DNA of 64,000 nt from Candidatus Aminicenantes bacterium (GCA_022866045.1 JALHTW010000126.1:5104-69103); one strand, 5' to 3'. Positions 14,731-57,411 are shown, numbered from the stretch's first letter. Notes: generated from the letters alone by a model not told the origin. Made by a program: numbers and translations.

Positions 14731-14847
14731 GGGAGCACTATCGTGCGAACGATATTCATGAATACCCAAATGGCACTCCGAAGTAACAAAGGCGCGTTCG
14801 TCATGAGCTCTCAAACGAGAATCCAGGGAAAACCTGAAGAGGCTAGC

Positions 14848-16245: not shown

Positions 16246-16364
16246 ATAAATTTCTTATCCGCCCTCTAAGAGGAAAAACCGGTTTGATGCGTGGATGTCC
16301 TTCCTTCCGAGCTTTCAACAGGGAATCTTTCATTTTCATAATTCATCTTGGGGAAAGGAGGCGC

Positions 16365-17660: not shown

Positions 17661-17666
17661 GGAGAA

Positions 17667-20293: not shown

Positions 20294-20378
20294 TGAGGAA
20301 TGAAAGGGAGACAGGATTTTCAGCGGACCTCTCGGGCAGGGAGAAGGCCTTTTCAATTTTTAGGATAGGAGGAAAAAG

Positions 20379-22312: not shown

Positions 22313-23392
22313 ATGAGCCAAAAATATTCCCGCCGAGATTTCATTAAAACAGGCGCGGCCATGGGGACCGCATCGCTCATGGGGCAGGGAAGGGGCCTTC
22401 TGGCCGGCATCCCGCGGGCCGCGGCCGCGTCCATCGGCATAATGCGGGTCGTATCATCCGGTAACGGCATCCGGGCCGTGGACAAGGCGATGGAAATCCT
22501 CAAAAATAACGGCGACCCGCTTGACGCCGTGATCGCCGGCGTGAACATTGTCGAAGACGACCCCAACGACATGTCTGTCGGCTACGGCGGGCTTCCCAAC
22601 GAAGAAGGTGAGGTCGAGCTTGATGCCTCGGTCATGTATGGCCCGACCCATACGTCGGGCGCCGTCGCTGCGATCAAAAACATCAAAAATCCGTCCAAGG
22701 TGGCGAAGCTCGTAATGGACCGGACCAACCATTGTTTGCTCGTCGGCAAGGGCGCGCTCAAGTTCGCCCTTGCCCACGGCTTCAAAAAAGAGAACCTTCT
22801 GACGGACAAGGCCCGGGAAGCCTGGCTGCGCTGGAAAGAAACGTTGTCCGACAGAGATAACTGGCTTCCCGCGCAGATCAAAAAGCTGCCCGAGGAGCTG
22901 CAGCTTTTAATGATGACCCACGGCACAATCAACTGCATCGCCATCGACGCCCAAGGCCGTCTGGCCGGCGTCACAACGACGAGCGGCCTGTCATGGAAGC
23001 TTCCTGGCCGGGTCGGGGATTCGCCCATTATTGGCGCCGGACTCTATGTCGACAATAATATCGGCGCTGCGGGATCGACCGGCCTCGGAGAGGCCAACAT
23101 CCGGACCTGCGCCAGCTTCCAGGTCGTCAACTTCATGGGCCAGGGAATGTCGCCCGAACAGGCATGCCTAAAAACCTTGGAGAAAATTTCGGAGAAAGCG
23201 AAACTCAGCCCGCCCTCGTTGAAGCTGCTAAACGCCGTGGGACTGCCAAGCTTCGGCCTGAATTTCTATGCGCTCAATAAGAAAGGCGAATTCGGCGCAG
23301 CGTGCATGTGGAGCGGAAGCAAATATGCGGTCCACGACGGCCAGAAAAGCGAATTGAAGGAATGCGCGTTCCTCCATAAGAGCAAAGCTTGA
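22313..23392 (+). CDS. Ntn-hydrolase asparaginase_2 family (glycosylasparaginase / isoaspartyl peptidase), Tat-exported
   Basis: Tat signal RRDFIKTGAAMG. Autoproteolytic site context HGTINCIAIDAQG and GAGLYVDNNIGAAGSTG. RBS gaggagg. Confidence 0.75.
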   Translation: MSQKYSRRDFIKTGAAMGTASLMGQGRGLLAGIPRAAAASIGIMRVVSSGNGIRAVDKAMEILKNNGDPLDAVIAGVNIVEDDPNDMSVGYGGLPNEEGEVELDASVMYGPTHTSGAVAAIKNIKNPSKVAKLVMDRTNHCLLVGKGALKFALAHGFKKENLLTDKAREAWLRWKETLSDRDNWLPAQIKKLPEELQLLMMTHGTINCIAIDAQGRLAGVTTTSGLSWKLPGRVGDSPIIGAGLYVDNNIGAAGSTGLGEANIRTCASFQVVNFMGQGMSPEQACLKTLEKISEKAKLSPPSLKLLNAVGLPSFGLNFYALNKKGEFGAACMWSGSKYAVHDGQKSELKECAFLHKSKA

Positions 23393-25442: not shown

Positions 25443-25542
25443 AAAGGCCTCGCTTATCTTAAGCCCATTCTAGCTGAAAGGCGTTTTGACTTCAATCCGG
25501 GGCTATGGTATCTATTAGCCTGCCCATGAAGAAGGAAACGGG

Positions 25543-26277
25543 ATGAGACGAGCGTTGGAACACCTCTCGCGGATGATCTATCCGGGGCGACTGATCGCCA
25601 TCGGCCGCGATGCATCCGGAGATTTCAACGTCGTTATTTATGCCCTCACCGGACGCTCGGCCTCGAGCCAGGCCCGGAAACTGGTCCTTGAACAGGGCGC
25701 GGTTTGGACGAAGCCGACCGATCCGGAAGCGCTCGCAAAGGGAAATCCTGACCTTCTCCTCTATCCGGCGCTCGTCCTTGGCCGAGGGATCGCCGTCAGC
25801 AACGGAAAACAGACCTCCGACATCGACGCCGGCTCGCCCGGAAGCCCCGTCCATGCTCTCGACCATGCTTTGAAGAACTGGACCTACGAGCCGGACGCTC
25901 CCATCTACACGCCCCGGATCAGCGGCTGCGTCCTGCCATCGAACCGGGCAGCCCTCAGCGTGATCAAGAGGGCGGACAATGGAGAAGCGCTGCGGTTCTT
26001 CTTCGAATTGCCTCTCATTGCCGGCAAGGGCAAAATGATCTCGACGTATTCCGGCGAGAATAAGGACCAGCTGCCGTCTTTTCATGGAGAACCGATCGAC
26101 CTTGAACTCGAAGAGAGCTCGGCCGCGGCTATGGCCGAAGCTGTGTATGCGGCGCTCGGTCCGCAGGAAGCGGAGAAGGACCTTCGGGTGGCCGTAGCTT
26201 GCCTGTTCGCAAAGGCCTCGGACATGACAGATCATCAATTCTATCTCATCAACCGCACAGAAAGGATGAGGACATGA
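25543..26277 (+). CDS. purO: Archaeal-type IMP cyclohydrolase PurO
   Basis: MIYPGRLIAIGRDASGDFNVVIYALTGRSASSQAR matches the PurO N-terminal signature (MYxGRxxAxGR...G.F..YRVSSRSFPNR). RBS aaggaa. ATGA-coupled to the next gene. Confidence 0.55.
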   Translation: MRRALEHLSRMIYPGRLIAIGRDASGDFNVVIYALTGRSASSQARKLVLEQGAVWTKPTDPEALAKGNPDLLLYPALVLGRGIAVSNGKQTSDIDAGSPGSPVHALDHALKNWTYEPDAPIYTPRISGCVLPSNRAALSVIKRADNGEALRFFFELPLIAGKGKMISTYSGENKDQLPSFHGEPIDLELEESSAAAMAEAVYAALGPQEAEKDLRVAVACLFAKASDMTDHQFYLINRTERMRT

Positions 26278-43029: not shown

Positions 43030-43601
43030 TATTTTTCGGAAATTTTCCTTCGAGATAATATATCCTAAGCACAAGCGAGATTCAAACTAGAACGGCTGAG
43101 GGGCATCCGGATCCGCGAAGGCCTTCAAGGAGCTTTCGATAACGTGGGGATAGCGTTAGCTCCTTGGCTGCGCTTTTTCTGCCTGCGGCGTCGAGGAAAA
43201 TAGCTGTCCGACCGAAAGGAGAGCTGAGATCAGGATCCCGGGACGTTTTCTCAAAAATGGACCTGTGAGTAATTCTTTTTCCGGTGTCAGACCAATTTCG
43301 GGCGGGGTCCTGTCGCGGCTCTTCCCCGGCCGTGCTCGCGGCCAGGCCGCTGCGCGCGGGCGGGGAGCCCCTTCGCCGCGCCACCCCTGCTCGACGAGTG
43401 GCGCTCCGGAAAAAGAATTACTTCGAATGCACCTTGAATGCTATTTTTTTTCAAATAACTATTTTATAATTCAAAGCCTCTCGTTTGTAAGGAGAGAGCA
43501 AATCAATGATGGGTCCTGTCGCCGGCGACCCTCGTCGTCCTCGCCACCGATCACTATTTGATTTCTCAAAAAACGAAAGACTTTCAGGGATGGGAGGTCG
43601 A

Positions 43602-46600
43602 ATGATGAAAAAGAAAAAGCTCGTTGTCTTTGAATGGCTGTTGATTCTCCTTTTATGGGCATTGTTGCCGGCCAAGGGCTGGTCGCAGAGCGCAGAGCAA
43701 GCCGGAAAATTCTTCGAGAAGTTCTTGTGGCGGGCCATAGGCCCGGCATTGATGGGCGGCCGGACCGTGGATATCGAAGCCGTGGAAAAACAGCCGTGGA
43801 TCATCTATGCCGCCATCGGCCCGAGCGGCGTCTGGAAGTCGGAAAACGCGGGCACGACCTGGGACCCGGTTTTTTTCAAAGAGAATACGGTTTCCGTCGG
43901 CGACATCGCCATCGCCCAGTCCAGTCCGAACATCATCTGGGCCGGCACTGGAGAGGCCACCTGCCGGAACAGCGTCACCATCGGTGACGGCGTCTATAAA
44001 TCCACGGACAGCGGAAAGACCTGGACGAACATGGGGCTCAAAGACACGCGCCACATCAGCCGAATCCTCGTCAACCGCGGCGATCCGAACATCGTCTATG
44101 TCGCGGCCATGGGACATCTCTGGGGCCCGAACCAGGACCGCGGCGTCTATAAAACGATCGACGGCGGCAAGACCTGGAACAAGGTCCTCTATATCAATGA
44201 GAACACGGGGATTTCGGATCTGGCCATAGACTATGGCGACAGCCAGGTCCTCTATGCCGGCGCTTATGAACATCGCCGGCTGCCGTGGATCTACACGAGC
44301 GGAGGGCAGGGAAGCGGGCTCTATAAATCCACGGACGGCGGAGTGACCTGGAAAAAGCTGACCAAGGACCTCCCTGAAGGTGTCGTCGGACGGATCGGGC
44401 TCGACACGTCCCGGAGCAATCCGGGCATTGTCTATGCCCTGATCGAGCACAGAGAAGGGAGTGTCTTCCGGTCCGAGGACCGGGGAGAAAGCTGGAAAAG
44501 GATGTGCTCGACGGACCGGTTCAAGCAGGTGGCCAACCGCCCGTTCTATTACAGCCAGGTCCGCGTCGATCCGAACAATGACAAGACGATTTACATCCTG
44601 GCGATGGGGCTGACCGTTTCGCGCGACGGAGGACAAAATTTCTTTGGCATCGGAAGCGGCATCCATCCCGACCACCACGCGCTCTGGATCGATCCCGGAA
44701 ATTCCCTCCACCTCCTCGAGGGCAACGACGGAGGCATCGACATTTCTTGGGATGGCGGAAAGACCTGGATCGACATCCAGGCGATCGACGCCGCAGAAGT
44801 CTACCAGGTCGGCTATGACATGAGGGATCCTTATTACGTCTATTGCGGTCTGCAGGACAACAACACTTGGGGCGGACCGAGCAGCAGCCTCGACACAGCC
44901 GGCGTTTTGAACGCGGACTGGTTCGTGATCAACGGCGGCGATGGTTTTTTTGCCGTGCCCGATCCGACGGACCCGAACACCGTTTATTCCAACTACCAAA
45001 TGAACGGCATGTCGCGCTTCGACGGCCGGATCAACGGCGGCAAATCCGTGCGGCCGCAGGCCTCCCTGAGCGAGCCGCCGTACAGGTTCAACTGGAACTC
45101 TCCGATCCATATCTCGCCGCATGACTCGAACGTCGTCTATTGCGGCGCCCAATTCCTTTTAAGATCGGCCGACCGCGGACAGTCCTGGCAGGTGGCGAGT
45201 CCTGACCTCACGACGAACGACCCGTCCAAACAGAAGGATTCAGGAGGTTCGATCACGCCCGATAACTCGGGCGCGGAAAGCCACTCGACGATCACGACGA
45301 TCGCGGAATCCCCGGTCAGAAAGGGCGTGATCTGGTGCGGGTCAGACGATGGCTACGTCCAAGTCACTCAGGACGAAGGCAAGACATGGACGAATGTTGT
45401 CAAAAATATCAAGGGGCTGCCGCCCAATATCTGGTGCTCCCGGATCGAGGCGTCGCATTTCGATGCCGGGACCGCCTATGCCTCTTTTGACGGCCACCAG
45501 ACGGATGATTACGCCCCCTATATATTTAAGACCACGGACTTAGGCAAAACCTGGAAACCGATCAAGGCTAATCTTCCCTTCGGCTGGGTCCGCGTCGTGC
45601 GCGAGGACCTGAAGAATAAAAATTTATTGTTTGCCGGAACGGAGTTCGGCATTTTCGCCTCGCTCGACGGCGGGACAAGCTGGTTTTCGCTGAAAAACAA
45701 CCTTCCGACCGTGACCGTCTATGACATCGCCATCCATCCCCGGACAAACGACCTCATTATCGGGACGCACGGCCGGGGCATCTGGATCATGGATGACATT
45801 TCATTCCTCCAGGAAATGAGGCCCGAAGTGCTGGCCAAGGACAGCCACCTCTTCGGAGTTTCTCCGGCCACGGCGTTCTATATGTCCTCGATCCGGGATC
45901 CGTTCGGCAAACCCGGCTTCGCCGGGAAAAACAGGCCGTTCGGACTGACGATCACGATCTATACGAAAGCCGAACCCAAGGAACAACCCAAGGCGATGGC
46001 CACCAACGCCCAAGGACGAATGGTTTTCGAGACCAAATTCCCTAAAAAAGCAGGTCTGCAGCGGTTCACCTGGAACTTGATGTTTGGGCCCGAAAAGGAC
46101 GGAAAAAAAATCACGCCGTCGGCGGCAATAGGACTCCTTTCCCCCTTAACCCTGCCGGGCGAGTACACGATCACTCTCGATGTCGATGGCACGAAATCCC
46201 AAGCAAAGACGGCCATCGCCCCCGATCCTCGGCTGGCCATGAACGAGGACGATCGGGCCCTCCTGTACGAAACGGTGGCGCAAACAATGATCGTCACCCA
46301 AAGAATGGCCCTGGCCGTGACGGCCGCGCGGAATCTTCGTGACCAGATCCCCAAACTCGATGAGGGACTGAAGAAAGCGGCCCCGGCTTCCGACGCTCTG
46401 GCCCAGGCCGCAAAAGCCTTTACCGAAAAGGCCGGGGCCTTGGCTGATGAGATCATCCCCAAGGAATTGCTCTCTTTAAATTCGCGCGAACTATCGCTCC
46501 GCGGCGGTTCGATCAACCAGATCCTGATGTCTTTAGGGAACTCACTGGCGAGCTTTCCCGGCCCTCCGACCGCCACCGAGATCCGGCAGGTCGGAGAAAT

Positions 46601-46727
46601 CGAAGAGATCGTGGCTTCATGGGTTCGTCGGTTGAACGAATTGATCGCGACCGACCTGCCGAAGCTCAACGAGGTGCTGAAAGCGCATAACGTCCCGCTG
46701 TTGACGGTTCCCCAGGAGATCAAATAG
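43602..46727 (+). CDS. Large secreted BNR/Asp-box repeat protein (sortilin/VPS10- or GH74-like beta-propellers)
   Basis: RBS gggagg and signal peptide. At least nine S/TxDxGxTW BNR motifs (STDSGKTW, TIDGGKTW, STDGGVTW, SEDRGESW, ...). 1042 aa. Confidence 0.65.
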   Translation: MMKKKKLVVFEWLLILLLWALLPAKGWSQSAEQAGKFFEKFLWRAIGPALMGGRTVDIEAVEKQPWIIYAAIGPSGVWKSENAGTTWDPVFFKENTVSVGDIAIAQSSPNIIWAGTGEATCRNSVTIGDGVYKSTDSGKTWTNMGLKDTRHISRILVNRGDPNIVYVAAMGHLWGPNQDRGVYKTIDGGKTWNKVLYINENTGISDLAIDYGDSQVLYAGAYEHRRLPWIYTSGGQGSGLYKSTDGGVTWKKLTKDLPEGVVGRIGLDTSRSNPGIVYALIEHREGSVFRSEDRGESWKRMCSTDRFKQVANRPFYYSQVRVDPNNDKTIYILAMGLTVSRDGGQNFFGIGSGIHPDHHALWIDPGNSLHLLEGNDGGIDISWDGGKTWIDIQAIDAAEVYQVGYDMRDPYYVYCGLQDNNTWGGPSSSLDTAGVLNADWFVINGGDGFFAVPDPTDPNTVYSNYQMNGMSRFDGRINGGKSVRPQASLSEPPYRFNWNSPIHISPHDSNVVYCGAQFLLRSADRGQSWQVASPDLTTNDPSKQKDSGGSITPDNSGAESHSTITTIAESPVRKGVIWCGSDDGYVQVTQDEGKTWTNVVKNIKGLPPNIWCSRIEASHFDAGTAYASFDGHQTDDYAPYIFKTTDLGKTWKPIKANLPFGWVRVVREDLKNKNLLFAGTEFGIFASLDGGTSWFSLKNNLPTVTVYDIAIHPRTNDLIIGTHGRGIWIMDDISFLQEMRPEVLAKDSHLFGVSPATAFYMSSIRDPFGKPGFAGKNRPFGLTITIYTKAEPKEQPKAMATNAQGRMVFETKFPKKAGLQRFTWNLMFGPEKDGKKITPSAAIGLLSPLTLPGEYTITLDVDGTKSQAKTAIAPDPRLAMNEDDRALLYETVAQTMIVTQRMALAVTAARNLRDQIPKLDEGLKKAAPASDALAQAAKAFTEKAGALADEIIPKELLSLNSRELSLRGGSINQILMSLGNSLASFPGPPTATEIRQVGEIEEIVASWVRRLNELIATDLPKLNEVLKAHNVPLLTVPQEIK

Positions 46728-47340
46728 AAGGAGGAAGCCGGCGGGTGGTGAAGCTCCGATCCGCGTAGAAATTGATCCGGAAGGAATTCGATTTCCGCGG
46801 GATCATCATGCAGGAGTCGTTGAGCCTGACGCCTATGGACGCTGCATCGACCTTCTGGAAAAGAAACTTCTGCTCCTCGAGCGGCCAGCCCCGGTAGCCG
46901 GGCGAAAACCTTTTGCTCGGCCAAAGTCCTCGGCGCAACGCTTCTTCCACAATGCGGCGCTCGGCCTGCTTGAAGACCTGGACGATCGCGTCCGTCCCGA
47001 AGGCATCCAGGATGAGCCCTTTGAGCATGTCGCCCTCTTTGAACGCCGTTTCGATCTCGGCCTCAAGCGCCGGTCCGATGGTCACGACGCCGAGGGCGAC
47101 CATGACCGCTTTGTCGAAGATGCGGTTCCCGTTTGTTTCTTCGTGACGGATAATCGTATAAGCCGCCTTAGGCGCCAACAGAGCTGGAAGGCGGCTTTCG
47201 GTGTCCTTCAATAGAGCGAGCAGGGAAGGGGCCGCCGATCTCAATCCGTTCCTGCTGCCGAGGCGAACAAGGACTTTTCCTTCGTCCCAGCGAAAGTCAA
47301 AGTCAGCGAGGATGATCTGCTCGGCCATTTTGGGTAACAT
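46720..47340 (-). CDS. Stand-alone homologue of the methionine synthase B12 reactivation (AdoMet-binding) domain, PF02965-like
   Basis: C-terminal SKRFSPGYRGWPLEEQKFLFQKVDAASIGVRLNDSCMMIPRKSNSFRINFYAD aligns with my recollection of the MetH activation domain (R.APGYPACP...IG..LTESFAMWP.ASVSG.YF..PD). ATG at 47340; an alternative TTG at 47367 overlaps the MttB stop. Confidence 0.5.
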   Translation of the reverse strand: MLPKMAEQIILADFDFRWDEGKVLVRLGSRNGLRSAAPSLLALLKDTESRLPALLAPKAAYTIIRHEETNGNRIFDKAVMVALGVVTIGPALEAEIETAFKEGDMLKGLILDAFGTDAIVQVFKQAERRIVEEALRRGLWPSKRFSPGYRGWPLEEQKFLFQKVDAASIGVRLNDSCMMIPRKSNSFRINFYADRSFTTRRLPPSI

Positions 47341-47363
47341 CGTGACCGGCTCTTGGCTGCCTG

Positions 47364-48830
47364 TCAAAGGATATCCGGAAGCCTATCGAATCCATTGTTC
47401 TTCGCGTCCCTCCGCATGATCCTTTCGAGTTCTTTCCGGAGGGCTTCGTCGGCGAGATTCGGCGGTGTCTCGTCCAGGATCTGCTCGACCCGGTCATGGG
47501 CCCGGTCATCCATGGACTTCCGGCCTTGCGATACCCAGGCATCATACGTGTCCCTGTCCGCGAGCCGGGGGAACGTATGCTCGAGCCGATACCATTTCCG
47601 CGTATGGGGCATGGTCATGAACTGGGTCTCGGGTTTGAAACCCTCGAAAAGGCGCAAAGCCAGGGGGTCTTCTCTCTGGGCGATCCCTTCAATCAGTCTG
47701 TAGGCCATTCCGCAGATCTCATTGTCGACCAGAAGCTTTTCCAGGCTCTGCGTGCTTTCGAAATTCAGCATGCCCGCGCCCGAGATGACATTGATGCCGG
47801 CCAGCGCGGCGAGCGTCGCGCCCATGCCCGACTCCAGCCCGGCTTGCGCGTCGTCGATCTTCGCGTCGCTCAAACCCATATAGGCATGCGTCGGAAGCTT
47901 GAGGTATTTGCCGATCTGGGCATAAGCCATATCGATCATCATCGTCTCGATCGCGCCCATCGGCGTCGTGCCTTTCCGCATGTCGAAGCTCGCCGGGGAA
48001 CCTCCGAAGATCACCGGGGCGCCGTGTTGAGCGAGCTGGCAGATGACGAGCCCGGCCAGGTTCTCGGCCACATGCTGGACGAGGGTCCCGGCGATCGTTA
48101 CGGGCGAGGTCGCGCCGGTCAATCCCATGGAAATGAGCTCCGAGGGAATTCCGGCCCGGGCGCAGTCGATGAGGCTCTGCGTGGTCAGATTGCTCCATTT
48201 CAGGGGAGGTGAGGGGCAGGCGTCGAAAATGGCCAGAGGCTTGCGCCGGAGCTCTTCGTCCCCGCCGCGAACGGCAGCCAGCATTTCGAACATCGGCCGG
48301 AATCCTTCGGTCCGGAACGTTCCGGTCACGACCGGTTTGGACGAGAATTGAAGGCCGAGATAAAGCCGGTAGCTGTCGGCGATGATCTCGGGAACATCGC
48401 TGCTGACCAGGGCCGTACTCTGAAAATGGATGTGCTCGCAGCTTTCGGTCAGGCGGGCCAGCCGGACAAGGTCGGCCGTCTCGGGCTTCCGCTCCTGCTG
48501 CGTGGAGTGATCGAGGATCTTCACGGCCGCCGATCCCGGGTCAAAATGGACGTTGTCATGCCCGACGACGAATTCCTTCCTGCCGGTGCGGTCATAGAGC
48601 TTGACCGTTAAAGGGGTTGAGGCGAGAGAATCTTCGATGAGCTTCCGGTTGATAAGAACTCTGAGGTTCGTCTCGTCTACCGGCATGCCCGCTTCTTTGA
48701 AGAGCGAGCGGGCTTCCGCGTTCTCAACAAAAACCCCGTGCCGCCCCAAAAGGAGAAAAGCCTCGTCAACGATCTTTTCGATGAACGACCGGCTGAGAAG
48801 TTCGACTTTAGGTCGTGTGGTCCGGATCAT
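47364..48830 (-). CDS. MttB-superfamily methyltransferase, non-pyrrolysine (trimethylamine methyltransferase family; quaternary-amine type such as MtgB/MtpB/MtcB)
   Basis: 488 aa from the ATG at 48830 (MIRTTRPKVELLSRSFIEKIVDEA...). MttB TIM-barrel family. No in-frame TAG, so not a Pyl enzyme. The 654-aa ORF-track version is an Arg-rich 5' artefact over the corrinoid gene. ATGA overlap with the corrinoid protein. Confidence 0.8.
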   Translation of the reverse strand: MIRTTRPKVELLSRSFIEKIVDEAFLLLGRHGVFVENAEARSLFKEAGMPVDETNLRVLINRKLIEDSLASTPLTVKLYDRTGRKEFVVGHDNVHFDPGSAAVKILDHSTQQERKPETADLVRLARLTESCEHIHFQSTALVSSDVPEIIADSYRLYLGLQFSSKPVVTGTFRTEGFRPMFEMLAAVRGGDEELRRKPLAIFDACPSPPLKWSNLTTQSLIDCARAGIPSELISMGLTGATSPVTIAGTLVQHVAENLAGLVICQLAQHGAPVIFGGSPASFDMRKGTTPMGAIETMMIDMAYAQIGKYLKLPTHAYMGLSDAKIDDAQAGLESGMGATLAALAGINVISGAGMLNFESTQSLEKLLVDNEICGMAYRLIEGIAQREDPLALRLFEGFKPETQFMTMPHTRKWYRLEHTFPRLADRDTYDAWVSQGRKSMDDRAHDRVEQILDETPPNLADEALRKELERIMRRDAKNNGFDRLPDIL

Positions 48831-49492
48831 GCGAGCCCCCTCTTCGGCCCGATTTCCTTGGCCAGTCTGACGGCTTCGAGGGCGTTCTCTCCGTATCCGT
48901 CCGCGCCGATGTCCGAGGCCCATCTCTTGTTCACGGGCGCCCCGCCGACCAGAACTTTGAACTGCTGGCGAAGACCGCGCTCCTTGAGCATCTCGATCAG
49001 CCGGCGCTGGTTGAGCATCGTCGTGGTGAGCAGGGCGGAGAGGCAGATGAGATCTGCATCCATCTCCAGGGCCTTGTCGATGAACCTTTCCAGCTTGACA
49101 TCGGCCCCCAGATCCATGACATCGAAACCGTTGGCCGAGAGCATCGAGGCGACGAGGTTCTTGCCGATATCGTGGATATCGCCTTCGATCGTTCCGATGA
49201 CGACCTTTCCGCGGGAAAAATGTTCTGCCTGGGATGCTTTCAGGGCGGGCTTGAGGACGGCCATCACGGCCTTCATGCATTCGGCGCTGCTGATGAGCTC
49301 GGGCAGGAAATATTCGCCCTTCTCCCACAGAATCCCGGCCTTTTGAATGCCGGGGATGTAGCCTTTCTCGATGACCTCATGCGGGTCAAATTTTTCGGAG
49401 AGGGCTCTTTTGGCCAGAGTTTCAGCCGCCTCCTTATTTCCCGTGACGACGGCCTCTGCCATCGAATTGAAAAGACGATCTTTAGACTCCAT
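48827..49492 (-). CDS. Cognate corrinoid (B12-binding) protein, MtbC/MttC/MtgC-like
   Basis: 221 aa. Cap domain plus Rossmann B12 domain with the His-on motif DIHDIGKN. RBS aaggag. Confidence 0.85.
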   Translation of the reverse strand: MESKDRLFNSMAEAVVTGNKEAAETLAKRALSEKFDPHEVIEKGYIPGIQKAGILWEKGEYFLPELISSAECMKAVMAVLKPALKASQAEHFSRGKVVIGTIEGDIHDIGKNLVASMLSANGFDVMDLGADVKLERFIDKALEMDADLICLSALLTTTMLNQRRLIEMLKERGLRQQFKVLVGGAPVNKRWASDIGADGYGENALEAVRLAKEIGPKRGLA

Positions 49493-49532: not shown

Positions 49533-51302
49533 CTATGAGTTCCAAGCTTTAAACTCCAAGGCTTCGATGAACATCGTTTGGAATTCGGCGTCTTTCGCCA
49601 GGCTCAAATGGCGGACCCTGTTCGCAAGCCTCTCACAGCGAATGCGCTCGGGGCGGGACAAGAGCAAAGCCTTGGCGCCAGCGAGCGAGGAATTGCCCAC
49701 GAAAAAGATCTTTTTTCGGTCAATGCAGGGGAGCAGCCCCAGTTTCATGCTGTGGGGGATGTTGAGATAGTTGCCGAATGCGCCGGCGACGTATATGCCG
49801 TCCAGGTCTTTGACTGCCATTTTATTCTTCGCCAGCAATATCCGAATGCCCGTCTTTACGGCCGCAACGGCGAGCTGGACTTCACGAATATCTTGCTGGT
49901 TCAGGGAGAGATCGTTCGTCACCTCAATCTTCTTGGCTGGGCCCAGGATATGACCCTGGGCAGAAATAAAGCCCTTATCCAACGCGACGGCGATAATGTC
50001 GATCAGGCCCGTGCCGCACACGCCGCGGGCCGGCTCGCCGGCGATCGTTTCCACGACCAGCCTGTCTTTGAATCCGGCCTTATAAACGGCCCCGGGCAGG
50101 GCGAGCATCCCGCAACTGATCGTCATCCCTTCGAAGGCCGGGCCGGCCGCCGTCGAAGTCGCCGTGAAACGGGCCCTTCTTTTGAGGACGATCTCCCCAT
50201 TTGTGCCCAGATCGACGAATAGAAAATTCCCCTTTTGATGCTCCAGGTCGACCGCCGACAGGCCTGCGGAGATGTCGCCGCCGACGAAACTCTTGATGTT
50301 CGGGGCAATATAGACTCGACCCAAGGGAGAGATCGCAAGTCCCGACTCGACCGCCGGCAGCGCGGGAAGGACAGAAAAAACGGCCTGATAGGGCGACACG
50401 GCCAGGGTCGTGACAGGCAGGCCGAGGAGCAGATGATTCATGGCCGTATTCCCGGCCACGACAGCTTCATACACGGAATCCGACGAAACTTGATTCCTGC
50501 GGAGCAGGCCCCCGACCATCTCGTTAAGACCACCAACAATGGCCGTCCGGAGGTCCTCGAGCTTACGGGGATCGGCATACGCCGCCGTGATCCTGGAGAC
50601 CACATCCGCTCCGTATTTTACTTGGGCGTTCAGTCCGGCGGTCGAATCGAGAGACTTCCCTGTGTTGAGATCGAGGAGCTCGACGATCACCGTCGTCGTT
50701 CCGAGATCGACGGCGATCCCGAAGTCCCGGCCTGTCGTGTCTCCCGGCTCGATCGCGAGCAACTCCTTGTCGGCATAAAGGACGGCGGTCCATTCGGCGG
50801 CAGCAGGGGCGAGTTGATGATTTTGAGCAAAGCGCCGGAGAGTTTCCAAGGACAGGTGAAGCTCGACGTTTGGAAACCGGCGCTGGATAAAATCCAAAAG
50901 GGAATCCGGAGAAGCCAAATCGGGCTTTTGAGCCGACAGGCTGATCTTCTTAACAGCTGGGTCAAGGGTTAGAGAACGGCCGACTCCATGGCTGAGCACG
51001 GGCATGTGGAGAAGCAAGGATTCGAGGGGAATACGGATGGCCATGTCCCCCTCGACCCTGGCCCGGCAGGCGAGCCGGAAGTTCGCCGGAAGTTTCCTCC
51101 GGGCTAATAAAGAACGCTCTTCATCGCTGGCCGAAGGAAGGGCGCCGCGGACGATCTCCACAATACATTTGCCGCACAACCCGCGCCGGCCGCAGTAAAG
51201 GCTGAGGCGAAGGCCGGCGTCTTCGAGGACGTCAGACAAAATCTTGCCGGATGCGACTTTCAAAACCCGGCCTTCAGGCAGGATCTTCAGAGCGTGGCTC
51301 AT
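49533..51302 (-). CDS. ramA: Corrinoid reductive activase RamA (2Fe-2S ferredoxin domain + ASKHA ATPase)
   Basis: N-terminal CGRRGLCGKCIV ferredoxin-like cysteine motif followed by a large ASKHA-fold domain. 589 aa. ATGA overlap with the upstream permease. Confidence 0.75.
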   Translation of the reverse strand: MSHALKILPEGRVLKVASGKILSDVLEDAGLRLSLYCGRRGLCGKCIVEIVRGALPSASDEERSLLARRKLPANFRLACRARVEGDMAIRIPLESLLLHMPVLSHGVGRSLTLDPAVKKISLSAQKPDLASPDSLLDFIQRRFPNVELHLSLETLRRFAQNHQLAPAAAEWTAVLYADKELLAIEPGDTTGRDFGIAVDLGTTTVIVELLDLNTGKSLDSTAGLNAQVKYGADVVSRITAAYADPRKLEDLRTAIVGGLNEMVGGLLRRNQVSSDSVYEAVVAGNTAMNHLLLGLPVTTLAVSPYQAVFSVLPALPAVESGLAISPLGRVYIAPNIKSFVGGDISAGLSAVDLEHQKGNFLFVDLGTNGEIVLKRRARFTATSTAAGPAFEGMTISCGMLALPGAVYKAGFKDRLVVETIAGEPARGVCGTGLIDIIAVALDKGFISAQGHILGPAKKIEVTNDLSLNQQDIREVQLAVAAVKTGIRILLAKNKMAVKDLDGIYVAGAFGNYLNIPHSMKLGLLPCIDRKKIFFVGNSSLAGAKALLLSRPERIRCERLANRVRHLSLAKDAEFQTMFIEALEFKAWNS

Positions 51303-52687
51303 ATCCGGCCTCTATTCGCGGCGACACGATTTTTTCCCGCCGTCCAAAAGAAATAGGCGGGCAGTCCGGCCAGAATGAGGCCTGCCCCGGCCAGGGCTTG
51401 AACCGGCCGGGAAAATATCACGGCGATAAAAATGACAAGATTGAAAACGACGTAAAGGATCGGCAGGACGGGATATCCCCAGGCCCGGAACGGCCGTTCG
51501 CGGTCAGGCACTTTCCGCCGGAGGACGAGCACGGAGAAGCCCGTGGCGGCGAAAAAGAGGACCAGGGCGAACGCCACATATTCGATCAGGCTCTGATAGG
51601 TTCCGGAGAGACAGAGGAGGCTGGACCAGATCATCTGAGCCAGGATGGCCTTTGTCGGGACCCGAAAACGGGGATGGACGAAGGAGAGGTTTTTGAAGAA
51701 AAGCCCGTCCCTGGCCATGGCGAAGGAAACGCGCGGAGAATAAAGGATGTTCGCGCTCAGGCAGCCCAGCACGGCGACGGCGACGACGGCCGAAAAAAGC
51801 CGGGCGATCCCGGGCCCGAAGAGGCGGACCGCGGCCAATTCACCGATTCGAAGAACTCCGTCCATCTCGTTCACCGGAAGAGCCATACTATAAACGATAT
51901 TCGCCAGCAAATAAAGCGCGGCCACGGCCGCTGTGCCCAGGACGAGCGAGCGGGGGATCGTCTTGCGCGGATTCCGGATTTCCTCAGCCGTGCAGCTCAC
52001 GGAATACCAGCCGTCATAAGTCCAGATGACGGCCAGGAGAGCGGCCCCAAAATATGTCCATGAAGGGATGCGGCCTACCGGAAAAAACGGGACCAGATTT
52101 TGAAAGCCCGGTTTCTTGCCGATCATGAGACCGAGAGCTGCGAACGCTAGGAGGGCTGCGATCCGGAGGCCTGTCATCAAGTTCTGGAAACGAGCTCCGC
52201 CCTGGATGCCGAAATAATTGAGCCCGGAAAGGATCATGATCGACAGAATGGCCGTGACATGCCCTGCGCTCAGGCTAAGATGGATCGGGCCCAGGTTAAA
52301 CGCGCACAGCATATGCCCGGAAGAGAGAGCTGGAACCAAAGACCCAAAATATTCCGCGAAACCTATAGCCAAGGCGGCAATCCCGCCGCCCCCGATGATC
52401 CAAAAAAAAGTCCAGCCATAGAGAAAAGAAACGGATGACCCATAGGCTTCTTTGAGATATACATAGGGCCCACCCGAGCCTGGATAGAGCGTTCCAAGCT
52501 CGGCGTATGTCAATGCGCCGAGGGTCGTTATAATCCCGCCCATGATCCAAACCAGCCAGATCAGGCTAGGGGAGGGGAGGCCTGAGGCAATGATCCCAGT
52601 GGTAAGGAAGATCCCGGAACCGAACACGGACCCTATGACTAGAAACAGGGAATCTGCGAGGCCCAATTTTCGGGCAAGCTCAGTCAA
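51299..52687 (-). CDS. APC-superfamily amino acid / organocation permease
   Basis: 12-TM APC transporter with the TM1 GSGIF motif. TTG start at 52687 preceded by AAGGAA. First gene of the five-gene operon. Confidence 0.75.
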   Translation of the reverse strand: MTELARKLGLADSLFLVIGSVFGSGIFLTTGIIASGLPSPSLIWLVWIMGGIITTLGALTYAELGTLYPGSGGPYVYLKEAYGSSVSFLYGWTFFWIIGGGGIAALAIGFAEYFGSLVPALSSGHMLCAFNLGPIHLSLSAGHVTAILSIMILSGLNYFGIQGGARFQNLMTGLRIAALLAFAALGLMIGKKPGFQNLVPFFPVGRIPSWTYFGAALLAVIWTYDGWYSVSCTAEEIRNPRKTIPRSLVLGTAAVAALYLLANIVYSMALPVNEMDGVLRIGELAAVRLFGPGIARLFSAVVAVAVLGCLSANILYSPRVSFAMARDGLFFKNLSFVHPRFRVPTKAILAQMIWSSLLCLSGTYQSLIEYVAFALVLFFAATGFSVLVLRRKVPDRERPFRAWGYPVLPILYVVFNLVIFIAVIFSRPVQALAGAGLILAGLPAYFFWTAGKNRVAANRGRI

Positions 52688-53165
52688 TTTATTTCCTTTT
52701 AAATAATCTTATCTTGTTGATTTTAATGCGATTATAAGCTTTTTATTTATAATTCAGCCTCATTATATGAAAAGCCTGCTAAAACATCAATGAAATGAGT
52801 TTTCCTATTCTTTGCCACTTTTCTTATATTCCTTAATTATCCCAGATTTATTTTGTTTAACCCAAGTTATTGACAGTTTCTTTTTCATCGAATATCAGGT
52901 TTTTGACTTCTTAAAACCAATGAAATAACATTTTATATATTACTTATCCCATATATTATATCGGTATTATGTAATATAATGACAATGATAATTTTTTTAA
53001 CGTCCTTAAGAAGCCTTAAAAAAGATAATGGATCATCAAGAAGTTCTTCGTCTTTTTATTTATTTTTCATCTATTTTTTTGGCTTCGTTTTTATTGGCCG
53101 TGTATAAAAATCTTTTTTTTAGATTATTTTTCTTGTAACCCGTGGTATTTAAATAAATTCTATTT

Positions 53166-53183
53166 ATGTCGGCCGGCCGACAT
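53166..53183. repeat. Perfect 18-bp palindrome atgtcggccggccgacat
   Basis: Self-complementary 18-mer embedded in AT-rich DNA, ~95 bp upstream of parA. Candidate operator or centromere-like site. Confidence 0.8.
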
Positions 53184-53277
53184 TTCTCTTTTAAAACGCT
53201 TGAAATTTCAGCGTATTTTAAGTATCTTATTCTTGCCTTTCAGTTTTATGACCGCTATTTGAACCAAGGAGAAGGGC

Positions 53278-54042
53278 TTGATTATCGCTGTCACGAATCA
53301 AAAAGGCGGAGTAGGGAAGACCACCACGGCCGTGAATGTCTCCGCTGCGCTCGCGTTGAGCGGATGCCGGGTATTGCTTGTTGACGCCGATTCCCAAGCT
53401 CATAGCACAAAGTCGTGCGTTAAGGACCCAAACAGCAACGAGAAATCTCTCTATGATGTTCTGATGCACCCGGAACAAAAGATCCAAGCTGCGATCATGA
53501 AGTCCACGATTCCGGGTTTGGATGTCGTTATTTCGCGAGTATCCATGGCTAAGCTTGAATCGTCGCTCCTCGGCCAGATCGATGGGCATTTTAGGTTAAA
53601 AGACGTCTTGGAACCTGTCCGCGAACGGTATGAATTCATCTTGATCGATACGCCGCCAACCTTGGCCTTGATTACCCTGAACGCCCTCGTCGCTGCCTCT
53701 CATCTTTTGATTCCTATTCAAGCTTCGTACTTGTCTCTCGAGGGCACAGACGATCTGCTTGAAACAATCGAGAAGGTAAGGCGTGTCGCAAATCCAAAGC
53801 TGCAGATCCTAGGCATCCTGATCACACTCCATGACAGCCGGACAAATATTGCCCGGGACGTCGTCGAACGCATCCAGCGTGTTTTCGGCGAAAAGGTTTT
53901 TCATACGTATATATCTAAAAGCGTCAAGATCGAAGAATGCCCGGCCTACAAGGAATCGATTTTTACGTATGCGGGCAACTCGGTTGGCGCGCTGCAATAT
54001 AAAAAAGTCGCCGAGGAGATATTGAAACGTGCAAAAAACTAA
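53278..54042 (+). CDS. parA: ParA/Soj-family partition ATPase
   Basis: IIAVTNQKGGVGKTTTAVNVSAALA deviant Walker A. TTG start with RBS aaggag. Lower GC than flanking core genes. Confidence 0.85.
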   Translation: MIIAVTNQKGGVGKTTTAVNVSAALALSGCRVLLVDADSQAHSTKSCVKDPNSNEKSLYDVLMHPEQKIQAAIMKSTIPGLDVVISRVSMAKLESSLLGQIDGHFRLKDVLEPVRERYEFILIDTPPTLALITLNALVAASHLLIPIQASYLSLEGTDDLLETIEKVRRVANPKLQILGILITLHDSRTNIARDVVERIQRVFGEKVFHTYISKSVKIEECPAYKESIFTYAGNSVGALQYKKVAEEILKRAKN

Positions 54043-54877
54043 GCGCTCAGGACTTCCAGACAATATAGGTATGCGACATGATACGCATTTCGTCGAATTC
54101 ATTTCGAGAACAGTCGCGGCGCCTCTAGTCCGATTGATCTCCCTTGACCGTATCGATCCGAATCCCCATCAGGCCCGAAGTGAATTGGGGAATATCGAAG
54201 AGCTGATGTCCTCGATCAAATCTAAGGGTGTTTTAGAGCCTATCCTTGTCCGTCCCCGCAGAGACCGATATGAGATCATTGCTGGCGAGCGCCGGTTCGT
54301 GGCCTCGAAGAACGTCGGTCTTAAAGAAATTCCGTGCATTGAAATGAACGTCACGGATAATGAGGCCATGGAGATCTCGCTCATTGAGAATCTCCAGCGC
54401 AAAGACCTTGATGTTTTTGAGGAGGCAGACGGACTCGGAACTCTGATCGATATCTATGGCTACAGCCACGCCCAAATCTCGGAAAAAATTGGAAAGGCCC
54501 GCTCTACGATCACGGAGATCATCAATATCAGCAAGATCCCGGCGCCGATCCGTAAACTGTGCCAGGCGAGTTCTATCGATAAAAACCGCAGCCTTCTCAT
54601 CGAGATCTCTAAACTAAAAAATGTGGAGGAAATGAAGACAGTTATAGATAATATTAGAGAGCGGGGTCTCAAAAGAGAGGATACGCGCGACCTGACAAAG
54701 CTTCTTAAGGGCAAAGAGACAGATAAGAAAAAACCGAAATATTATGTCTTCAATTATAGTCCCAAGGAAGACCGTTCCTGCCGGATCCATATCGAATTCA
54801 AAAAAGAATCCGTCAGCCGCCAGGAAATTATTCGCATTCTTGAAGATCTTCTTGCTAAGTTGAAGACAAATCAATAA
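54029..54877 (+). CDS. parB: ParB/Spo0J-family partition protein
   Basis: ParB box EIIAGERRFVASKNVG plus an HTH region. GTG start overlapping the parA end. Low GC. Confidence 0.8.
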   Translation: MQKTKRSGLPDNIGMRHDTHFVEFISRTVAAPLVRLISLDRIDPNPHQARSELGNIEELMSSIKSKGVLEPILVRPRRDRYEIIAGERRFVASKNVGLKEIPCIEMNVTDNEAMEISLIENLQRKDLDVFEEADGLGTLIDIYGYSHAQISEKIGKARSTITEIINISKIPAPIRKLCQASSIDKNRSLLIEISKLKNVEEMKTVIDNIRERGLKREDTRDLTKLLKGKETDKKKPKYYVFNYSPKEDRSCRIHIEFKKESVSRQEIIRILEDLLAKLKTNQ

Positions 54878-55327
54878 TATTTTTACGCTTCAATTAGAAT
54901 CTCTTTCTTGAACTTAAAGAAATCCAAATGAACAAAAATTCATTGACCTATTTGCCTTTAGGAAGAATCAGGCCTCTTATGCATAGCTTAAATATGTAAA
55001 GAAGAACAGTGAGCTTTCGAAAGCGTCTTATGGCCTAATGGCCAAATCGCATTAGTTTACATAATAACTCTTATGCGACTCATAATTCATATACTTTTCA
55101 ACCTATTTATTTTCAACTAGATATGATAATTACGAAGTTTTTTGTCAATTTCAAGACAATATATTGCGCGTTTGTCCAAGCTAATCGGCTTATATTGATG
55201 TTGATAATATCAGGCTTGTCTTAATTTTGCCTTAGCTCTATCATAAATTAATGCCCCCTTTATAAATTCCGTTTCTTTTATTAAGCTAATTCTTGACCCA
55301 AATTTTCTAATGATTTTTGCGTTTAGG

Positions 55328-55855
55328 CTAATAAGAGCTCGGTTCGGGACCAGAGGCATGGAGTTGAACGATCACCCAACGTCCGTCTCGTCTCTCCAAA
55401 ACGCCGCTGATTCTCAGGCCTTCTATGACAAACGTTTTGCCCTTTTCAACTTCTTTCCAAGACAGTACTTCAGAGAACCAGGCGGCCTCTCCGGACCTGT
55501 GGACTTTGATCCTTTGGTCCTTAAGCCCAATCTCTATCCGGTCAACGGACGTAAAATATTTATCTATATATGCCTGGGTCATCTTCCAGCCCACGCGCCG
55601 GTCTAAAGGATTGCTGCCAAAGACGACGAGATCCTCATCGTGGGCATAGACTTCGGCCACTCCTTCCCTATTTCTTGTTTGAAAAGCTTTTATATATCGC
55701 TCAAGTACGGCCTTGACGGCCGCTTTTTCAGTGTCAATATCTATGGCCGGCTGGGCTTTCTGATGAAGATCCTCGTTCAAAGATGCGTTCATAGAAACGG
55801 TGCAAGCGGCCAACAGAACCGCCAAAATAGCTTTGGTCGCTAATTTTCTCATCAT
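55328..55855 (-). CDS. Secreted NTF2-like/SnoaL-like (DUF4440-type) protein
   Basis: Signal peptide MMRKLATKAILAVLLAACTVSMNA. NTF2-fold pattern (VLERYIKAF...WKMTQ...RDGRWVIVQLHAS). ATG at 55855; the ORF-track start at 55876 is TTG. Confidence 0.5.
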   Translation of the reverse strand: MMRKLATKAILAVLLAACTVSMNASLNEDLHQKAQPAIDIDTEKAAVKAVLERYIKAFQTRNREGVAEVYAHDEDLVVFGSNPLDRRVGWKMTQAYIDKYFTSVDRIEIGLKDQRIKVHRSGEAAWFSEVLSWKEVEKGKTFVIEGLRISGVLERRDGRWVIVQLHASGPEPSSY

Positions 55856-56455
55856 CCTCTCCCTCTTTAAACTCAATTTTATTTTAATGTTCTATTTCGG
55901 GATCGAAATGCTAGACCTAATGTTGGCCAAAGGATAACAATTGCGGAGCAAGGTGTCAAATTCCGATAGAAGCTATAAAAAAATAGCTGCGGGGAAGAAT
56001 AACCTGAATCCTGCATCAAATATAGTGGATGAACTTGATAAATGAAAAATATTGAGCGATTCATATGATATTTAGGGCTCATTCTTAACCTAACTAAAAG
56101 GTAAGTTAAGAAAAAAGTTCTTTGATCAGCTCAATATGAATATAACTTGCTGATATCATTATGGTTATGTGATATTTTAGCAATCATTTATTAAAAAATT
56201 CAGGCAGGATTCAGGTTTAATTCTCCCCGGCCTAATTTTCGGCAAAAATTAGGCAAAATTCCCTGCCTGATTTTTCATGTTATCCCCGATTATTTGTCCC
56301 CGAAAGGAGATTATCGGAGGAAAAAAAAGGGCCTGTCTTTCCCCTTTTCTAAAGGGGAATACCCGGGAATTCGGGATTGTTCCTAAAAATAGGGATTTGT
56401 CTTTAAAGAAAAGACGACACGTTATATCGCGTGTAAGATAGACAAAACAGGCGAG

Positions 56456-57286
56456 TTATGACAATCCTTGCCCCCCGGCTTTGGCCAGTCGTACGGTACT
56501 CCAGAAGGAATGTTTCGGCGGCAGTCGGTCTATGCCTCTGGCCCCAGCGGTGATGTCCGTGGATCGACCGAGGTCTGTTTCGTTGGAGATATTCGACTGT
56601 TCTCCCCGGGCTTTAGCGATCGCCTTTCTCTGCTCCTCGGTCGGCCCGCCCCATTCAAAGCCGATCGTCACCGCCGCTCCGGGCTGAGCGCCGATGCCCG
56701 CGGCATTGTCTTGGACGCGATTCAAGGGGACGGCGAATTCATAGACGAGCGATTTTTGCGGGGAGGCATATTTGAACATGGCCGGCAGGACGCCAGGAGG
56801 GACGGGAGATAATCCGGTTTTTTTGGTCACGACTTCGGATGCGTAATAACTATAAAAGGGCTTGGAGCGTATCTGGGCCTTCTGGTCCTCGGAGACGGCG
56901 CTATCCTTTTCCAGCAGGGCGATGAATTCTTCGGCCGTGATCCGTTTCCTCAGGAAATGAATACCATAATTTTTATTTCTGTTCCCTTCGGTGTCGACAT
57001 AAAGCGTGATCCCCACGTCTTCGATCGTGCTCCGGAGTTTCGAGTCTTTGATGATGAACAGGACATACAGCTTTTGGGCGTCATTGCGGAAGGCATATTG
57101 GATTCCTCCTTTTTCCCATTCGGCGAGCGCCGCCCCTTCCCATTCATTCGCCGCTCCGTCGAGCTTGGGGGGTTGGTTCGTCCAGACGCTTTCTGTCGTC
57201 TTGTCCTCCGCGGCCCGACCGGAGATTGCCGGCAGAATCGCCAGGGCCAAAACCATGCTCAGAATTAAAAAAGACATCTTTTTCAT
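56456..57286 (-). CDS. Secreted hypothetical protein
   Basis: Signal peptide MKKMSFLILSMVLALAILPAISGRAAED. No recognisable domain. ATG at 57286. Confidence 0.45.
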   Translation of the reverse strand: MKKMSFLILSMVLALAILPAISGRAAEDKTTESVWTNQPPKLDGAANEWEGAALAEWEKGGIQYAFRNDAQKLYVLFIIKDSKLRSTIEDVGITLYVDTEGNRNKNYGIHFLRKRITAEEFIALLEKDSAVSEDQKAQIRSKPFYSYYASEVVTKKTGLSPVPPGVLPAMFKYASPQKSLVYEFAVPLNRVQDNAAGIGAQPGAAVTIGFEWGGPTEEQRKAIAKARGEQSNISNETDLGRSTDITAGARGIDRLPPKHSFWSTVRLAKAGGQGLS

Positions 57287-57411
57287 TCTCATTAAACTTC
57301 TCCTCGCGCCTCTTAAAAACCTCATTGTTTAAGTATGAAGAATCCCATCCCAAAAATCAACTCCCCTCACGTCATGACGCGGTTTCTCAGATAAAATGAT
57401 TGCCACCCCCC

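Follow-up and report, generated by a model that had tools for sequence, protein, structure and literature searches.

Methionine synthase (MetH) is reactivated by its own S-adenosylmethionine (AdoMet) domain together with flavodoxin. In Thermotoga maritima, the small protein TM0269 and AdoMet are reportedly required to reactivate MetH in trans, and TM0269 adjoins and serves TM0268, a three-module, folate-dependent MetH. Analyzing 64,000 nucleotides (nt) of a Candidatus Aminicenantes genome (GCA_022866045.1, JALHTW010000126.1:5104-69103; hereafter the window, with positions counted from its first letter), we found a gene whose product, ACT in our working nomenclature, is, on sequence and modeled structure, almost certainly a reactivation-domain homolog of the TM0269 type. 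Unlike TM0269, ACT adjoins a methylamine-type corrinoid protein of the TIGR02370 family, an MttB-family methyltransferase, and a RACo-type activase.

Several described systems bear on this arrangement. The AdoMet domain of T. maritima MetH is presented as a separate polypeptide in the passage of PMC10293825 that cites Huang et al. 2007. The split MetH of Phaeobacter depends on two further proteins, one RamA-like and the other the small DUF1638, and some bacteria pair a RamA-like protein with a MetH bearing PF02965 (PMC5764234). Genetic work in Ruegeria (2025) assigned a single corrinoid protein, MtgC, to two pathways, glycine betaine demethylation with the MttB-family enzyme MtgB and methionine synthesis with MtgD and MtgE; this organism induces both RamA and DUF1638 (PMC12478193). 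Desulfitobacterium hafniense has a glycine betaine system composed of MtgB, MtgC, MtgA, and RamA (Ticak et al. 2014, as summarized in PMC12478193 and PMC6081815). Finally, Williams et al. 2022 (Environ Microbiol 24:2576, PMC9324843) predicted, by bioinformatics only, a four-gene set (MttB homolog, homocysteine S-methyltransferase, corrinoid protein, and activation protein) for methionine synthesis from an unknown methyl donor in metagenome-assembled genomes (MAGs) that also had full-length MetH.

The ACT gene is located as follows.

46720-47367, minus strand: ACT, stand-alone homolog of the MetH AdoMet-binding reactivation domain, assigned by PF02965 similarity, the match to 1J6R, fold, and motif.

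This interval fits exactly the maximal open reading frame (ORF) of 215 amino acids (aa), which begins at TTG 47367, a codon overlapping the MttB stop codon (cTTTGA). Translation most likely begins at ATG 47340, for a product of 206 aa; the annotated NCBI/GenBank product (P0001, 206 aa from this ATG) is 100% identical to the window protein, most homologs start near the same ATG, and a weak AAGAG lies 9 nt upstream of it. Residue numbers below refer to the 206-aa version.

In a Pfam search at E <= 0.01, PF02965 (Met_synt_B12) was the sole match to ACT (21.4 bits, E 1.9e-4), aligning residues 138-195 with profile positions 184-243 of 273, and the TIGR02082 metH model of NCBIfam matched at its positions 1113-1168 (E 4.6e-4). 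The C-terminal alignment with PF02965 claimed in a preliminary description of this DNA is therefore real but weak, and homologs with 40-47% identity to ACT exceed the profile's threshold, for example L081 at 42.7 bits. Against the Protein Data Bank (PDB), phmmer matched ACT to 1J6R (T. maritima TM0269, 214 aa; E 1.7e-5), and a profile built from 22 family members matched the same entry at E 4.9e-11. An AlphaFold2 model made from the 22-member family alignment, whose mean column identity is 58%, reached a predicted local distance difference test (pLDDT) value of 91.7 and a predicted template-modeling (TM) score of 0.87. Its top Foldseek match was again 1J6R (E 3e-12, TM 0.74/0.78, 197 columns), ranks 2-19 were 18 MetH activation-domain structures from T. 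thermophilus, Escherichia coli, and human, and nothing else was significant; the Foldseek probability was 1.00 for 19 MetH structures. The predicted fold agrees with motif and TM0269 homology on the identity proposed in the preliminary description.

The positions that are invariant or nearly so in the 22 sequences cluster in LWPSKRFSPGY..W..EEQ and SCMMIPRKS.SFRINFY. The first holds RFSPGY, an RxxxGY motif, at residues 144-149, where R, P, and G never vary and F, S, and Y are at least 90% conserved; the second holds MMIPRKS at residues 178-184. RxxxGY, the motif by which class II methyltransferases bind SAM (PMC7982431), is kept in 122 of 149 distant representatives (26-68% identity). The family's most conserved block, DSCMMIPRKSNS in ACT, aligns with ESFAMWPGASVS in E. 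coli and DSYVLVPRKTIT in TM0269. When the family profile was compared with E. coli MetH 897-1227 in hhalign, only 47 columns aligned (E 0.0025, residues 1130-1178), pairing RFSPGY with R1134-P-A-P-G-Y1139 and MMIPRKS with AMWPGAS, and TM0269 carries RISPGY and LVPRKT at the matching positions. We take E. coli residues 1130-1178 to hold the cobalamin-contacting hairpin. The positions preserved by selection in ACT would then be those that bind AdoMet and, presumably, face cobalamin. The family assignment itself rests on TM0269 homology and fold rather than on the hhalign match to E. coli MetH.

ACT and TM0269 are both free-standing proteins of about 200-215 aa with the same fold (TM 0.74-0.78), an R-x-S-P-G-Y motif, and an (M/L)-x-P-R-K-(S/T) segment at the putative hairpin, and each presumably acts in trans on a domain that binds B12, but they share only 16% identity in the Foldseek alignment. 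They are minimal versions of MetH module 4: the size gap remarked on in the preliminary description holds, with about 206 aa for ACT and 214 aa for TM0269 against 331 aa for the E. coli module (897-1227). That ACT is a chance ORF, or its resemblance to PF02965 a coincidence, is hardly credible. Its Pfam score does lie under the gathering threshold, but a word-indexed search returned 148 homologs at E <= 1e-3, nearly all of about 200 aa and mostly from Aminicenantes, and an exhaustive hidden Markov model (HMM) search returned 6,444 representative clusters at E <= 1e-3 (3,076 at E <= 1e-10); these numbers, the pLDDT value, and the Foldseek probability refute chance. Among the best 150 of the 6,444 representatives there are no fusions, all being stand-alone proteins of 68-307 aa, and hence the family offers no Rosetta-stone evidence. 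Many members at 26-36% identity (among P0122-P0269) have a CxxCxxxxCx[YF]R tail at the C-terminus that might bind a metal or an Fe-S cluster; it is absent from the ACT of the window and its Aminicenantes clade.

Upstream of ACT lie four genes with which it forms, as judged from gene order and spacing, one tight operon of five minus-strand genes, ACT being the last.

51299-52687, minus strand: APC-family amino-acid permease, 462 aa, first gene of the operon (PF13520, E 2e-57).
49533-51302, minus strand: RACo-type ATP-dependent reductive corrinoid activase, 589 aa (Fer2, RACo_linker, Raco_middle, and RACo_C_ter domains).
48827-49492, minus strand: corrinoid protein, 221 aa, with a B12-binding_2 cap (PF02607) and a B12-binding Rossmann domain (PF02310).
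47364-48830, minus strand: non-pyrrolysine MttB-superfamily methyltransferase, 488 aa, presumed methyl-donor enzyme or first methyltransferase (MT1) (PF06253, E 6e-91).
52762-52790, minus strand: sigma-70-like promoter match TTGATG-17-TATAAT, 10/12, a consensus match only, about 75 nt upstream of the permease start.

The permease and RACo genes share an ATGA overlap, as do those for the corrinoid protein and MttB, and 23 nt separate MttB from ACT. The permease is presumed to import the methyl donor. The corrinoid protein scores 229 bits against TIGR02370, above the cut-off of 215, and carries DIHDIG (DxHxxG) at residue 105 and SxL...GG at residue 152, from which base-off/His-on cobalamin binding is predicted. 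The 488-aa MttB ORF is uninterrupted, with no in-frame stop; it scores 402 bits against TIGR02369, below the cut-off of 525, and is about equally far from MtgB (2QNE/9YCE, E 3e-64) and from pyrrolysine-containing MttB (7XCL, E 3e-62), so that its substrate is not readable from homology. A longer ORF of 654 aa (47364-49328, minus strand) consists of MttB with an upstream in-frame extension; we rejected it as a real gene, since over its first 166 codons it runs through the corrinoid-protein gene in a different frame, yielding Arg/Gly/Pro-rich sequence, and the true start is ATG 48830. No Rfam riboswitch family reached threshold in the window, and nothing credible was seen in 52500-53400.

The activase matches Carboxydothermus hydrogenoformans RACo (3ZYY) over its full length (E 2.8e-92) and combines a plant-type 2Fe-2S domain at the N-terminus (Cys37/43/46/79) with an ASKHA ATPase domain, whereas the TIGR04270 RamA model matches it only in part (155 bits against a cut-off of 500). 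It is thus a RACo-type relative of RamA, of the same superfamily but with bacterial RACo architecture: the co-transcription of ACT with RamA seen in the preliminary description stands as far as an ATP-dependent corrinoid activase is concerned, but the enzyme, with its N-terminal 2Fe-2S domain, is not archaeal RamA proper. C. hydrogenoformans RACo (3ZYY, 4C1N) shares the same 2Fe-2S, linker, middle, and ASKHA architecture but serves the CoFeSP of the Wood-Ljungdahl pathway, whereas the window activase sits in an MttB operon. Its identity to the acs-cluster RACo of two Aminicenantes loci (L167, L170) is about 31%, which marks it as a paralog dedicated to the MttB operon. Two reactivation devices in one operon, deemed unexpected in the preliminary description, are somewhat so, but RACo lies within 5 kb of ACT in 10 of 80 genome loci, and Phaeobacter combines RamA with DUF1638 (PMC5764234). 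This recurrent linkage and this precedent fit complementary roles, electron injector and methyl trap, better than redundancy. DUF1638 (PF07796) itself had no match among 45 window ORFs scanned with Pfam.

Gene neighborhoods tie ACT to this system well beyond the window. A scan of one genome per species found 301 ACT loci, of which the best 80 were analyzed by mapping window proteins onto them with tblastn; counts refer to the 49 loci with at least 2.5 kb on each side, and the sample, being ranked by similarity to the query, describes the Aminicenantes-centered part of the family. An independent metagenome scan, in which 31 loci were counted, recovered mostly the same MttB-linked clade. MttB lies within 2.5 kb of ACT in 39/49 genome and 26/31 metagenome loci, and the corrinoid protein in 37/49 and 26/31, which is the co-occurrence that the preliminary description had proposed to look for; neither of the outcomes named there as refuting its reading was seen. 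RACo is found within 5 kb in 8 of the 49 loci with full flanks, the permease within 6 kb in 9, and a homocysteine methyltransferase (HcyMT, described below) within 2.5 kb in 8 and within 10 kb in 12. Clustering of the unlabeled genes at 84 loci added unrelated syntenic genes only (Sortilin/BNR, galactokinase-like, sulfatase-like, peptidases, and others, identified by eye).

Three gene orders recur. The first, corrinoid protein-MttB-ACT, is that of the window clade, in which RACo and, where recovered, the permease lie upstream in every locus with enough flank (L001, L002, L005-L008, L068). The second is corrinoid protein-ACT-MttB. The third, corrinoid protein-HcyMT-ACT-MttB, occurs mainly outside Aminicenantes, in loci labeled Krumholzibacteriota, Terriglobales, Acidobacteriota, or unclassified MAGs (L070, L076, L080, L081, L083), and in seven metagenome loci (L088, L089, L094, L099, L101, L103, L120); the cluster of L081 was confirmed gene by gene with Pfam. 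HcyMT is directly upstream of ACT in all eight loci labeled outside Aminicenantes, the five above together with L075, L078, and L084: L075 and L078 are isolated HcyMT-ACT pairs between unrelated genes, and L084, labeled Gemmatimonadota, gave no corrinoid-protein match. One locus (L098) holds a five-gene cluster of RACo, HcyMT, corrinoid protein, ACT, and MttB, and in L015 and L016 RACo directly adjoins ACT without other partners. Such varied orders across phyla suggest functional coupling under selection rather than inherited synteny, and we consider it very probable that ACT works with the corrinoid protein/MttB system.

A convergent plus-strand ORF of 1073 aa (43506-46727) shares 8 nt with the 3' end of ACT. 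The homologs of this ORF in related loci carry Sortilin-Vps10/BNR domains and are the most conserved neighbor of ACT (47/84 loci); this adjacency looks like inherited Aminicenantes synteny rather than functional partnership.

The putative methyl-accepting enzyme of the window, or second methyltransferase (MT2), is encoded apart from the operon.

2183-3076, minus strand: HcyMT, stand-alone MetH-type homocysteine S-methyltransferase, 297 aa, putative MT2 (PF02574, E 2e-66).

The preliminary description rightly placed a homocysteine methyltransferase here but called it MmuM/BHMT-type; it is instead of the MetH-module type, matching T. maritima 1Q7M (E 9e-49) and Thermus MetH 8SSC (E 2e-47) far more closely than BHMT (about 1e-16) or the MmuM-type 5DML (2e-15). 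Its Zn-binding Cys triad C211/C277/C278 aligns with E. coli MetH C247/C310/C311. MetH-type homocysteine modules take the methyl group from methyl-cobalamin, which fits the acceptor role proposed for HcyMT. All 120 closest relatives are stand-alone PF02574 proteins of about 295 aa, and three contexts can be told apart. In the window, L168/169, L173/174, and L175, HcyMT follows an M20 peptidase, an aminotransferase, a 2-hydroxyacid dehydrogenase, and a further aminotransferase, and is followed by a convergent DUF4416 gene and AsnRS; in the window it begins 12 nt downstream of a class-V aminotransferase gene. The same synteny in L171 and L172 includes a stand-alone Pterin_bind gene (PF00809, 262-268 aa) directly after HcyMT (L171:10933-11739, L172:10889-11677), between it and DUF4416. 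In L167 and L170, HcyMT closes a cluster of CODH, ACS, CooC, CdhD, AcsC, and RACo, without AcsE and with a slightly different gene order between the two.

The pterin gene is absent from the syntenic site in the window, L168/169, L173/174, and L175, and in the window only 18 nt (2165-2182) separate HcyMT from the convergent DUF4416 gene. Searching with tblastn for the E. coli MetH pterin module and two Aminicenantes pterin proteins gave no match in the window or in 166 ACT loci; as a control, the L171 and L172 pterin proteins detect the E. coli MetH folate module at E 3e-15, and the query was sensitive enough to pick up Aminicenantes pterin proteins. Pfam scans of the operon genes and of 40 window ORFs turned up neither PF00809 nor URO-D-type MT2 genes, and a search for pterin-protein homologs gave no entry recognizable as coming from the window's MAG. 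The HcyMT locus L174 and the ACT homolog P0049, which lies in an operon of the L001 type, are both listed with a contig of 320,747 bp and are probably on the same contig.

Three further observations concern the surroundings of HcyMT. Some 8-9 kb past HcyMT, L168 (18857-20116) and L171 (19636-20892) carry a gene for S-adenosylhomocysteine hydrolase, a position just beyond the left edge of the window, which fits an activated-methyl-cycle neighborhood. A ComA-family (2R)-phospho-3-sulfolactate synthase gene (11151-11978, minus strand; PF02679, E 2e-89) keeps its syntenic place relative to the HcyMT block of L168 and of L171. The HcyMT that ends the clusters of L167 (809-10879) and L170 (1-10885) is 64-65% identical to that of the window, and there is no pterin methyltransferase in either cluster, which suggests a route from methyl-CoFeSP to homocysteine.

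Set against the described systems, the window shares with the Williams cluster the same four protein families and the same hypothesis of corrinoid-dependent methionine synthesis (PMC9324843), but its HcyMT is 44 kb away, leaving three of the four families in the operon, and the operon adds the APC permease and the RACo-type activase, the latter not mentioned in the passage on that cluster. With the MtgBCDE system of Ruegeria pomeroyi and the split MetH of Phaeobacter inhibens it shares disaggregated MetH modules, a RamA-family activase with a small accessory protein, and a single corrinoid protein that could be served by a PF06253 donor enzyme and a stand-alone homocysteine module, the Zn Cys triad being present in the window HcyMT. 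Those systems, however, have a pterin-binding MtgD, for which the window has no counterpart; they use DUF1638 and no PF02965 protein, whereas the window accessory is of the PF02965 type; their corrinoid protein is CmuA-like rather than of the MttC/MtgC type; and they are backed by genetics, whereas the window system is known from sequence alone. The D. hafniense system likewise has a non-pyrrolysine MttB-family MT1 (2QNE, E 3e-64), a cognate corrinoid protein, and an ATP-dependent activase, but its MT2 is a pterin-binding methyl-corrinoid:tetrahydrofolate methyltransferase and it has no MetH-type activation protein. By the affinities of its parts, the window system is chimeric and not literally a split MetH: HcyMT and ACT are MetH-like, and the corrinoid protein, MttB, and RACo come from methylamine and acetogen toolkits.

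Putting these parts together, we propose that the permease would import a methylated or quaternary amine, the MttB-family enzyme would methylate cob(I) on the corrinoid protein, and HcyMT would move the methyl group from there to homocysteine, yielding methionine. After adventitious oxidation of cob(I) to cob(II), ACT, working in trans on the corrinoid protein, whose gene lies two positions upstream, would dock on the uncapped cobalamin face and hold AdoMet beside the cobalt through its RxxxGY motif. One electron would be supplied, most plausibly by the 2Fe-2S-bearing RACo-type ATPase in place of flavodoxin, and ACT would trap the transient cob(I) as methyl-cob(III). Such reductive methylation with AdoMet is the chemistry of MetH reactivation (PMC10293825). 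We put the probability of the whole mechanism, the cycle from amine through corrinoid to homocysteine with AdoMet-dependent repair by ACT, at roughly 0.6; with the homocysteine module included, the gene set points to an operon that probably enables methionine synthesis from a methylated amine.

A number of observations weigh against this proposal. The ACT score of 21.4 bits is below the PF02965 gathering score of 25, and the N-terminal half of ACT has no sequence match to MetH. HcyMT is 44 kb from ACT, in another operon with aminotransferases, and related genomes (L171, L172) encode a folate-binding module beside it, so that a folate-dependent split MetH may be what ACT chiefly serves. The pair of corrinoid protein and MttB that lies 4.7 kb past the Wood-Ljungdahl cluster of L167 has no ACT nearby. 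Conversely, six Aminicenantes loci (L012, L022, L024, L028, L037, L048) have ACT but no corrinoid protein or MttB in the 2.8-10 kb available, indicating that ACT can be kept apart from its usual partners; the Sortilin/BNR gene still stands beside ACT in five of the six. The MttB-linked ACT clade is known only as sequence. To our knowledge, RamA is the only activator that characterized MttB/MtgB systems require, and ACT might then be dispensable or do something else.

The main competitor of the proposed cycle, possible but clearly the less probable of the two, is an arrangement like Ruegeria MtgBCDE, in which ACT serves a disaggregated folate-dependent MetH, MttB is an extra donor, methyl groups also pass to tetrahydrofolate, and nothing has been replaced; the role of ACT would be unchanged, with "replaced" becoming "supplemented". 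The pterin genes that directly follow HcyMT in L171 and L172, where synteny is otherwise unchanged, speak for it, but the same site lacks the gene in the window and in L168/169, L173/174, and L175. Stand-alone Pterin_bind proteins are widespread in Aminicenantes, and several are listed with a longest contig of the same size as that of HcyMT homologs (for example 51,201, 84,361, 12,710, and 7,976 bp), which is a hint and no proof of co-location; near ACT, on the other hand, no pterin module occurs within 8-10 kb in 166 loci, nor in the 64-kb window. The precedent of MtgC, which serves glycine betaine demethylation and methionine synthesis alike (PMC12478193), has to be set against the compact corrinoid protein-HcyMT-ACT-MttB clusters, which hold all MetH modules save the pterin one. 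The preliminary description had read the genes as a split MetH whose methyl-tetrahydrofolate module was replaced by MttB: gene neighborhoods strongly back the module set, but the Pterin_bind genes of L171 and L172 leave the replacement unsupported for this lineage. The idea of methionine from an amine is sound but had already been predicted (PMC9324843), and the closest experimentally grounded analog, Ruegeria, retains the folate module.

Two other explanations seem improbable to a similar degree. ACT could be a non-catalytic adaptor resembling DUF1638, displacing the cap or stabilizing the His-off state to present the cob(II) corrinoid protein to RACo. RACo alone should be chemically sufficient, ACT adjoins it without other partners in L015 and L016, its PF02965 match is sub-threshold, and DUF1638 co-varies with RamA-like proteins (PMC5764234); yet a purely structural role would not need the SAM-binding RxxxGY that is invariant or nearly so in the family, TM0269, as the closest relative of solved structure, reportedly needs AdoMet, and 41 of the 49 ACT loci have no RACo within 5 kb. 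Alternatively, the operon could be purely catabolic, passing methyl groups to tetrahydrofolate or another acceptor for energy or carbon, with ACT keeping the corrinoid active and the distant HcyMT, 44 kb off in its separate operon, unrelated. A permease and an activase in the operon recall the catabolic MtgB/MtcB/MtpB systems, and some Aminicenantes have Wood-Ljungdahl genes, but no pterin-binding MT2 was found in the operon, the window, or the related loci (the last searched for the pterin-binding type only), and HcyMT and ACT are tightly paired in other phyla, including the isolated pairs of L075 and L078.

Within the proposed methionine-forming cycle, a bolder version can be offered tentatively, as one we think less likely to be right than wrong. 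The window's subclade of Aminicenantes would have lost the folate-binding module from the split MetH, so that the five operon proteins and the unlinked HcyMT make up a B12-dependent methionine synthase that needs no folate and draws on an imported methylated amine. Repair of its corrinoid would fall to a hitherto undescribed two-part device, in which ATP-driven electron injection by RACo is coupled to methyl trapping with AdoMet by a MetH-type ACT on a non-MetH corrinoid protein. Possibly new details of the present analysis are a RACo paralog and a permease sharing an operon with ACT, the finding that a pterin gene next to HcyMT is present in some loci and absent from others, and the HcyMT that closes Wood-Ljungdahl clusters.

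Elsewhere in the window, 52001-56000 has a low G+C content (0.43-0.45 against about 0.55 elsewhere) and covers the region upstream of the operon and parA/parB-like genes (53278-54877), beyond which lie Rho, Lon, and ClpX; the cumulative GC-skew minimum is near 57 kb. A replication origin near parAB and this minimum was considered and rejected, DnaA-box counts being no higher than in shuffled sequence. Four consecutive amidohydrolase-family paralogs (458, 444, 431, and 606 aa) occupy 16284-22199 on the plus strand, followed by an Asparaginase_2 gene at 22313-23392. Five ORFs of 248-466 aa have no Pfam match at E <= 1e-5 (11995-13011, 13366-14730, 14743-16143, 25492-26238, and 56456-57325).

For annotation, the ACT proteins of about 200 aa, mostly "hypothetical" now, can be named, a family of some 6,400 clusters at 50% identity, and nearby labels such as "trimethylamine methyltransferase" and "5-methyltetrahydrofolate--homocysteine methyltransferase" deserve more caution. 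If the proposed mechanism is true, the MetH reactivation module would be a portable repair part for non-MetH corrinoid proteins, alongside RACo/RamA, and a B12-dependent equivalent of betaine-homocysteine methyltransferase would be added to the known routes. Many uncultured anaerobes, among them Aminicenantes, other Acidobacteriota, Krumholzibacteriota, and Gemmatimonadota, would then use quaternary or methylated amines from their surroundings to form or recycle methionine directly, with no part for methyl-tetrahydrofolate, linking osmolyte turnover in sediments to the activated-methyl cycle.

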